Shown one piece after another: positions 48,001 through 51,000 of a stretch of 64,000 nucleotides of DNA (within the stretch, counting starts at the first letter, position 1; each line of letters begins with the position of its first letter). Position numbers: made by a program. Where the stretch lies: assembly GCF_057098645.1 (NCBI RefSeq), contig NZ_CM169472.1. One strand, written 5' to 3'.

Positions 48001-51000
48001 CGTTTGCTGCTGTAACACCAATGATAGCCATTGGGATGAACCCGGATATCGGCCTGCTGGGGATATTTGGTGCCACTATCGCCGCGGGTTTTATCACCAC
48101 ATTATTAGCGCCACTTATCGGTCGCTTGATGCCTTTATTTCCGCCACTGGTTACCGGTGTGGTTATTACTTCTATCGGGCTTAGCATCATTCAGGTGGGT
48201 ATTGACTGGGCCGCCGGAGGTAAAGGGAATCCGCAATATGGTAATCCCGTTTATTTAGGTATCTCCTTTGCCGTCTTAATTTTTATCTTGCTCATTACTC
48301 GCTATGCGAAAGGATTTATGTCCAACGTCGCCGTATTACTGGGGATTGTATTTGGCTTTTTACTTTCGTGGATGATGAATGAAGTCAATTTATCCGGGCT
48401 ACATGATGCCTCGTGGTTTGCGATTGTCACCCCGATGTCGTTTGGTATGCCGATTTTCGATCCCGTTTCCATTCTGACCATGACTGCCGTGTTAATCATC
48501 GTGTTTATCGAGTCGATGGGGATGTTCCTGGCACTGGGTGAAATAGTCGGTCGTAAACTCTCTTCGCACGATATTATTCGCGGGCTGCGTGTCGATGGCG
48601 TAGGGACAATGATAGGCGGAACGTTTAACAGCTTCCCCCATACGTCATTTTCTCAAAACGTTGGCCTGGTTAGCGTGACGCGCGTTCATAGCCGCTGGGT
48701 GTGTATTTCTTCGGGAATTATATTAATCCTGTTTGGCATGGTGCCAAAAATGGCGGTGCTGGTAGCCTCCATTCCGCAATTTGTGCTGGGCGGCGCTGGT
48801 CTGGTGATGTTCGGCATGGTACTGGCGACAGGGATTCGAATTCTGTCGCGCTGTAACTACACCACCAACCGTTACAACCTCTATGCTGTAACTACACCAC
48901 CAACCGTTACAACCTCTATATTGTGGCGATCAGTCTCGGCGTTGGCATGACTCCGACGCTCTCTCACGATTTCTTTTCTAAGTTACCGGCCGTACTGCAA
49001 CCGCTGCTACATAGCGGCATTATGCTCGCAACCCTTAGCGCCGTTGTGCTGAATGTCTTCTTTAATGGCTACCAGCATCATGCTGACCTGGTGAAGGAAT
49101 CCGTCTCTGATAAAGATTTAAAAGTCAGGACAGTACGTATGTGGCTTCTGATGCGCAAGCTGAAGAAAAATGAGCATGGAGAATAATATGAATTTTTTAA
49201 TGCGCGCTATATTCAGTCTGCTGTTGCTTTTTACTCTCTCTATTCCTGTCATTTCTGACTGTGTTGCAATGGCCATTGAAAGTCGCTTCAAATATATGAT
49301 GCTACTTTTTTAAATGGTTTTTACCTGTCGACATCCGCTCAAAACGGGCGGTTGTCGATAAACGCTCACTTGGTTAATCATTTTACTCTTCAATTATCTA
49401 TAATGATGAGTGATCAGAATTACATGTGAGAAATTATGCAAACGGAACACGTCATTTTATTGAATGCACAGGGAGTTCCCACGGGTACGCTGGAAAAGTA
49501 TGCCGCACACACGGCAGACACCCGCTTACATCTCGCGTTCTCCAGTTGGCTGTTTAATGCCAAAGGACAATTATTAGTTACCCGCCGCGCACTGAGCAAA
49601 AAAGCATGGCCTGGCGTGTGGACTAACTCGGTTTGTGGGCACCCACAACTGGGAGAAAGCAACGAAGACGCGGTGATCCGCCGTTGCCGTTATGAGCTTG
49701 GCGTGGAAATTACGCCTCCTGAATCTATCTATCCTGACTTTCGCTATCGCGCCACCGATCCGAATGGCATTGTGGAAAATGAAGTGTGTCCGGTATTTGC
49801 CGCACGCACCACCAGTGCGTTACAGATCAACGATGATGAAGTGATGGATTATCAATGGTGTGATTTAGCTGATGTATTACGCGGTATTGATGCCACGCCG
49901 TGGGCGTTCAGTCCGTGGATGGTGATGCAGGCGACAAATCGCGAAGCCAGAATACGATTATCTGCATTTACCCAGCTTAAATAAAAAACCCCGACATTTG
50001 CCGGGGTTGTGAGCATAACGTAATGCTTATTTCACCGGACGCATCGCCGGGAACAGAATAACGTCGCGGATGGTATGGCTGTTGGTGAACAGCATTACCA
50101 TACGGTCGATGCCAATCCCCAGACCTGCTGTCGGCGGTAAGCCATGTTCCAGTGCGGTGACGTAATCTTCATCGTAGAACATCGCTTCGTCGTCACCTGC
50201 ATCTTTCGCGGCAACCTGATCCAGGAAGCGCTGCGCCTGATCTTCCGCGTCATTCAGTTCGCTAAAGCCGTTACCGATTTCACGACCACCAATGAAGAAC
50301 TCAAAGCGGTCTGTGATTTCCGGGTTAACGTCGTTACGACGCGCCAGCGGAGAAACTTCTGCCGGATATTCAGTAATGAAGGTCGGCTGAATCAGATGTG
50401 CTTCAGCCACTTCTTCGAAGATCTCGGTAACGATACGGCCCAGACCCCAGCTCTTCTCAACGTGGATACCGATAGATTCAGCAATCGCTTTCGCAGAGTC
50501 GAAGTTGTCCAGATCCGCCATGTCGGTTTCCGGGCGATATTTCTTGATCGCTTCACGCATGGTCAGTTTTTCGAACGGTTTACCGAAGTCCAGCGTCACG
50601 TCGCCGTAGGTCACTTCCGTCTTACCGAGAATATCCTGTGCCAGAGTACGGAACAGCGATTCGGTCAGCTCGATCAGATCTTTGTAATCTGCGTAAGCCA
50701 TGTAGAGTTCCATCATGGTGAACTCTGGGTTATGACGTACGGAGATACCTTCGTTACGGAAGTTACGGTTGATTTCGAATACACGCTCGAAGCCACCGAC
50801 CACCAGACGCTTGAGGTACAGTTCCGGCGCGATACGCAGGTACATGTCGAGATCCAGCGCGTTATGGTGGGTGATAAACGGACGCGCAGCGGCACCGCCA
50901 GGGATCACCTGCATCATCGGCGTTTCAACTTCCATAAAGCCGCGGTTCACCATGAACTGGCGAATACCAGAGAGGATCTGCGAGCGCACTTTAAAGGTGT

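Follow-up and report, generated by a model that had tools for sequence, protein, structure and literature searches.

The closest described counterparts of the allele analysed here are the frameshift pseudogenes created by short tandem duplication, in which an exact head-to-tail copy of a unique ORF segment, of a length not divisible by three, leads to a premature stop and is carried clonally in one lineage. A disrupted copy of the urate transporter gene uacT in Escherichia coli shares these features and differs in nothing essential, its one oddity being the absence of microhomology at the boundaries of the duplication. In the pneumococcal capsule genes cap3A, cap8E and tts, according to the passage of PMC4243769 that cites Waite 2001 and 2003, numerous distinct duplications appear, and revert, at high frequency. 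As in that account, uacT has a perfect tandem duplication within the ORF that would inactivate the gene, and the precise loss of one copy (in silico for uacT) restores it; however, both states are there described within pneumococcal populations, whereas uacT has one fixed duplication that is seen in no other lineage and has a single candidate revertant at most. Simple-sequence-repeat contingency loci are likewise genes in which a change in repeat number alters the frame, but functional uacT contains no repeat tract and has no built-in hypermutability in its ON state. Finally, the same gene has been damaged independently in Shigella and in other truncated E. coli alleles, although by different mutations (insertion, nonsense, other frameshift), none with the 35-bp junction; these include an S. 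flexneri allele whose 294-aa product runs into foreign sequence, fragments in S. sonnei, and an allele of 467 aa under the label E. coli O145. The seven further UacT forms examined, truncated or partial, are other kinds of lesion or contig-end fragments, and no segment is duplicated in any of them.

UacT is a urate-specific permease whose gene adjoins a reductive anaerobic urate-degradation gene cluster (PMC12507026). In the window, i.e. the 64-kb stretch of DNA analysed as a whole, that cluster is otherwise present (xdhD, ygfK, ssnA, ygeW, dpaL, ygeY, hyuA and arcC), and, with the reference annotation transferred by exact alignment, the gene order ygfT - uacT - yqfG - idi is kept. Over 24 kb around the duplication, the window is 100.0% identical to the O145:H28 strains RM12761 and RM13516, whose records are 35 bp shorter and in which the locus is annotated as uacT, a urate/proton symporter. 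Additionally, the prfB gene on the minus strand (51554-52652), 2.6 kb downstream of uacT, is identical in window and reference; its programmed +1 frameshift is well known and marked in the reference annotation, and the gene is not another pseudogene. The features of the uacT locus are as follows.

47703..49186, plus strand: uacT (ygfU), urate/H+ symporter gene, disrupted; full gene extent including the extra 35 bp, otherwise 100% identical to the DNA of the annotated uacT of RM12761
48850..48884, plus strand: copy 1 of the 35-bp unit GCTGTAACTACACCACCAACCGTTACAACCTCTAT; native sequence, codons 383-394, single copy in all reference genomes
48885..48919, plus strand: copy 2 of the 35-bp unit, i.e. 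the extra 35 bp, shifting the frame by +2; in the BLAST alignment to RM12761, window 48885-64000 re-aligns 35 bp back
48884/48885: copy 1/copy 2 junction of the duplicated allele, reading ...CCTCTAT and then, across the junction, GCTGTAAC...
47703..48950, plus strand: ORF cut short at 415 aa, of which 394 are native and 21 out of frame, ending in TGA at 48948-48950; the same protein is on 8-9 public contigs
48947..49186, plus strand: ORF of 79 aa left over from the C-terminus and read in the native frame, with part of TM13, TM14 and the cytoplasmic tail; it opens at an ATG that overlaps the stop of the preceding ORF (ATGA)

Direct string comparison finds the two units identical, and Tandem Repeats Finder reports 48850-48919 as one array with a period of 35, 2.0 copies, 100% matches, no indels and a score of 140, the sole array scoring at least 50 within the 64-kb window. 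A perfect 35-nt repeat cannot have arisen by chance in 64 kb. The period-35 identity spans exactly 48850 to 48884, and the ends of the duplication are sharp. The flanking bases are unequal at the left end (c/t) as well as at the right (g/a), so that boundary microhomology is absent. A hairpin or quasi-palindrome as the driver of the duplication can be rejected as well, as no such potential was found at the site and the DNA folds no better than its shuffles (z = 0.09). Similarly, with no Rfam match in the region from 45 to 53 kb, the idea that the duplication lies in a structured or otherwise known RNA element was rejected.

Since 35 is not a multiple of 3, copy 1 is read as native sequence and copy 2 shifts the frame. 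The frame opening at ATG 47703 thus yields native residues 1-394 followed by 21 novel residues, AVTTPPTVTTSILWRSVSALA, while the remaining 88 native codons (I395-E482) fall in another frame, where a mechanical ORF search gives an 87-aa ORF running from GTG 48923 to 49186. When one unit is deleted in silico, the result is a 482-aa ORF whose product is, residue for residue, the entry named UACT_ECOLI, identical to K-12 UacT, a protein present on at least 1000 contigs. The preliminary description had reported back-to-back identical units, a stop at 48950, a last 87 codons displaced into another frame and a 482-codon ORF on removal of one unit from what it identified as uacT; each of these points holds, the gene name through the annotation of a 100%-identical reference locus and the count of 87 as the length of the GTG-initiated ORF, 88 native codons being displaced. 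Because a native-frame ATG overlaps the TGA (ATGA, 48947-48950), gene finders call the 79-aa ORF separately, with an overlap of 4 nt with the 415-aa ORF. The 79-aa sequence occurs on 93 contigs, some labelled Klebsiella pneumoniae, and a related fragment of 97 aa carries the name Pseudomonas aeruginosa; both assignments probably reflect contamination or mislabelled E. coli/Shigella fragments.

In alignment with the solved NCS2/NAT structures, UacT residues 394/395 (...RYNLY/IVAISLGVG...) coincide with the point where the penultimate helix begins in UraA (...nLiltsviliiGvsg) and UapA. Within the NCS2/NAT fold, TMS1-4 and 8-11 form the core and TMS5-7 and 12-14 the gate domain, and residues of TMS14 are important for function, namely N430 and I432 in XanQ and T526 and F528 in UapA (PMC3405029). 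With native sequence ending at residue 394, the main product of the duplicated allele has lost TM13 and TM14, and therefore two of the six gate-domain helices, from a complete 14-TM fold. Judged by topology, loss of UacT function is very likely: a 415-aa protein from which both helices are missing should not transport urate, and the predicted phenotype is a loss of external urate uptake for the adjacent anaerobic urate-degradation cluster.

The duplicated allele is rare. A 46-mer specific for its junction matches none of 5,426 complete E. coli genomes, and chance and low-complexity filtering were both rejected as the cause of that negative result, the same unmasked query finding the window itself under megablast with DUST on. 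The nearest relatives of the window carry a single copy of the unit. The exact 415-aa product is, nevertheless, on contigs from both NCBI and ENA. A contig of GCA_015672835.1 is base-identical to window 44703-51950, both copies included, and the unrelated assembly GCA_053263075.1 is identical over 43598-49017, again with both copies present. The preliminary description had allowed that the duplication might prove an assembly artefact or a feature of normal reference alleles and had suggested a comparison with uacT of related genomes; the same structure in these two assemblies, its absence from the 5,426 complete genomes and the single copy in the relatives answer all three points, the duplicated allele being derived and lineage-specific.

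The background on which it sits is distinctive in several other respects, of which the following features are needed here.

4451-5781, opposite orientation to IS2#2: IS2#1, in the gene for the ETT2 type III secretion ATPase (sctN/eivC homologue) close to its 5' end, with a 5-bp target duplication, GAAAC
12891-14221: IS2#2, in a gene of glycoside hydrolase family 15 (GH15), with the target duplication CAAAC at 12886-12890 and 14222-14226
43457-44824: ghxQ, guanine/hypoxanthine permease, with non-synonymous changes at 44091 and 44123 (I212S, G223S), 32 bp apart
45348-47267, minus strand: ygfT, with G458A at window 45895

Relative to RM12761, the window has not only the 35-bp insertion, as a simpler view of it (since rejected) would have it, but also two IS2 insertions, both confirmed as IS2, a 4-bp deletion and 15 SNPs, a configuration found in no complete genome of the collection; among the collection's complete genomes on this backbone, none has IS2#1. 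The 4-bp deletion lies at window ~6490 in the ETT2 escV homologue, an EscV/YscV-family export-apparatus gene that it should frameshift, and together with the IS2 insertion in sctN it represents further decay of the cryptic ETT2 island. The GhxQ (I212S plus G223S), YgfT (G458A) and YgfK variants of the window each occur on about 31 contigs with adjacent accession numbers, and together they define a small sub-lineage whose backbone is O145:H28-like. Other non-synonymous differences from RM12761 lie at 17549, 17963 and 18044 (xdhA), 29494 (yqeB), and 33116 and 35042 (ygfK). At yqeB the unusual allele is that of RM12761, the window having the common YQEB_ECOLI form, and for xdhA and ygfK the versions in both window and RM12761 are rare; hence RM12761 is not a clean proxy for the ancestor, and the excess of non-synonymous SNPs relative to it, considered as a sign of decay, partly dissolves. 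By contrast, RM12761 has the common, K-12-like forms of GhxQ and YgfT, so that, with protein variants polarised by how common they are in public data, the changes in ghxQ and ygfT alone are clearly derived in the sub-lineage of the window. Two further genomes, CP074824.1 and GCA_038451885.1, encode XdhA exactly as in the window, but the surrounding DNA is 1-2% divergent; they were rejected as members of the sub-lineage, and identity of a single protein is thus no safe lineage marker here.

The duplication has been inherited while the sub-lineage diversified. When contigs are anchored on the YgfT G458A protein with a very short flank, 24 can be read: the 415-aa call is on 7 of them and a 482-aa call on 1, and for the other 16 no uacT product is recorded. 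The representative of the 16, which alone was checked at sequence level, carries the duplication, and the missing product is consistent with annotation of the gene as a pseudogene. The exception is the contig ABFBPG010000008.1 of GCA_022217545.1, with a full-length 482-aa uacT call, and simple clonal inheritance therefore has at least one exception. Meanwhile, members of the sub-lineage differ by private SNPs at window 14789, 15797, 19120 and 37223 and in the presence of IS2#2, which is in the window and in GCA_032290885.1 (representing a group of 11 contigs), whose contig begins 123 nt inside the element, but is absent from the duplication-bearing GCA_015672835.1, whose contig runs through the insertion site with the GH15 gene intact (536 aa) and stops 4 nt from IS2#1. 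Since the duplication was kept while the private SNPs and the polymorphic IS2#2 accrued, it is stably inherited. The preliminary description had called the duplication recent, and this stands in a relative sense only: the allele is derived and limited to one sub-lineage, but 23 of the 24 contigs are without an intact call and SNPs and an IS2 have been gained since.

The duplication is thus very probably an ordinary, lineage-specific and clonally inherited loss-of-function pseudogene allele that arose by one exact 35-bp tandem duplication. For the mutational mechanism, the loss of transport and reversion alike, we infer the following course of events. A single duplication would have originated, most likely, in a replication misalignment or template-switch error; since there is neither microhomology nor a hairpin, an origin by textbook slippage is not specifically supported. 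The allele has since been passed on clonally within the small sub-lineage; its +2 frameshift after codon 394 replaces the last 88 residues with 21 unrelated ones and removes TM13 and TM14, which should cost the cell its uptake of external urate for the neighbouring cluster. With its two copies perfect and side by side, the repeat can lose one of them by RecA-independent slippage and so return to the exact wild type, an event to be expected as a rare back-mutation and not as a programmed switch.

Why such an allele persists is a separate matter, and one answer would be that the loss was selected, the duplication having been favoured in this sub-lineage as one of several changes, with YgfT G458A and those in GhxQ, that shut down the import and use of urate. 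This explanation is compatible with the pseudogene reading, which concerns what the allele is. It draws on the three sub-lineage-specific non-synonymous changes and the frameshift that fall within about 5.5 kb (ghxQ-ygfT-uacT) in which there is no synonymous change, as well as on the independent damage to uacT in Shigella. Additionally, in alignment to the glutamate synthase small chain and to NfnI structures, the conserved VVVLGGGDTxMD (GxGxxA) nucleotide-binding motif of YgfT has G458 as its first glycine, and YgfT, a formate-dependent urate-utilisation protein encoded beside uacT, may be impaired by G458A. However, four events are too few for a test, a roughly 3:1 excess of non-synonymous changes is expected for young neutral mutations, and the remainder of the cluster is intact, making selected loss an unlikely explanation.

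A different proposal extends the suggestion of the preliminary description that the locus could switch on and off: the duplication would be the OFF state of a duplication/collapse toggle that changes urate uptake at biologically useful rates within the lineage. Its OFF-to-ON half has something to recommend it, as the perfect, adjacent copies would collapse to the exact wild type, RecA-independent slippage works on direct repeats down to 35 bp (PMC7063769), and the pneumococcal duplications, as reported in the citing passage, provide a precedent for reversibility. There is also the intact contig of GCA_022217545.1, which has the ygfT marker of the sub-lineage and ends at window-equivalent 14227, 6 nt from the edge of IS2#2; as contig ends near an IS2 edge are also seen in GCA_015672835.1 at IS2#1, IS2#2 is inferred to be present in this genome. 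The genotypes would then be duplication with and without IS2#2, no duplication with IS2#2, and the ancestral state with neither, and the occurrence of all four combinations on a clonal tree means that one character has changed twice. For such a change, the collapse of perfect, neighbouring 35-bp copies is much likelier than a precise excision of IS2, another IS2 hit in the same site or the independent origin of an identical duplication, and the conflict in GCA_022217545.1, needing one homoplasy, is therefore best explained by collapse of the duplication, whether a real reversion or an assembler error, with recombination also possible. Rare, precise reversion of the duplication is thus mechanistically expected, with one candidate natural instance, although it is quite improbable that GCA_022217545.1 is a true natural revertant nested within the clade having both duplication and IS2#2, and hence evidence that the duplication is naturally reversible. 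If it were, a Shiga-toxin-lineage E. coli clone would have silenced and later regained the uptake of external urate through gain and collapse of 35 bp, depending on the purine environment of the gut or host.

The ON-to-OFF half of the proposal fares worse. The functional allele has no hypermutable repeat, the reference alleles being single-copy, and without a repeat, microhomology or hairpin in the intact gene nothing makes the step from ON to OFF frequent. Furthermore, the absence of the junction from all 5,426 complete genomes means that the same OFF event has not recurred in the other lineages sampled, an intact call is missing from 23 of the 24 sub-lineage contigs although they have diverged in SNPs and IS2, and the lone intact contig could reflect assembler collapse of the 35-bp repeat or recombination. 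What survives of the on/off idea is therefore the return from OFF to ON, and that for one contig which may itself be collapsed, and a toggle operating at useful rates is a doubtful reading of the locus.

The ATGA overlap raises the prospect of a split but functional transporter, in which termination at TGA 48948-50 would be followed by re-initiation at ATG 48947 and the 415-aa and 79-aa fragments would assemble into an active permease. Both ORFs are called by gene finders, the overlapping start is in the native frame, and split permeases can complement in other families, e.g. LacY. However, the cut lies inside TM13, such that the N-terminal fragment ends in 21 foreign residues and the C-terminal fragment is without the first 9 residues of that helix, and no Shine-Dalgarno sequence is visible upstream of 48947; on these two grounds a functional split permease is very unlikely, and NCBI-annotated assemblies of the sub-lineage give the locus no product, as would fit a pseudogene call. 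As for the notion that the extra 35 bp is an assembly or sequencing artefact absent from the real genome, it is effectively excluded because the allele is base-identical in at least two independent public assemblies from different projects, and its product is on 8-9 contigs across NCBI and ENA, and the 70-bp structure is shorter than a normal Illumina read.

Taken as a lineage-specific pseudogene allele, the uacT duplication has a significance that is mostly practical, a programmed or adaptive switch being an improbable reading that the data do not support. Should the intact isolate be a real revertant, it would offer a tidy natural case of precise collapse of a short duplication restoring a gene, still without any new mechanism. 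The 35-bp junction can serve as a clean and unique marker for genotyping a single sub-lineage with an O145:H28-like backbone, and carriers of the allele are predicted to lack import of external urate for the neighbouring anaerobic urate-degradation cluster, a pathway of interest in gut purine homeostasis.
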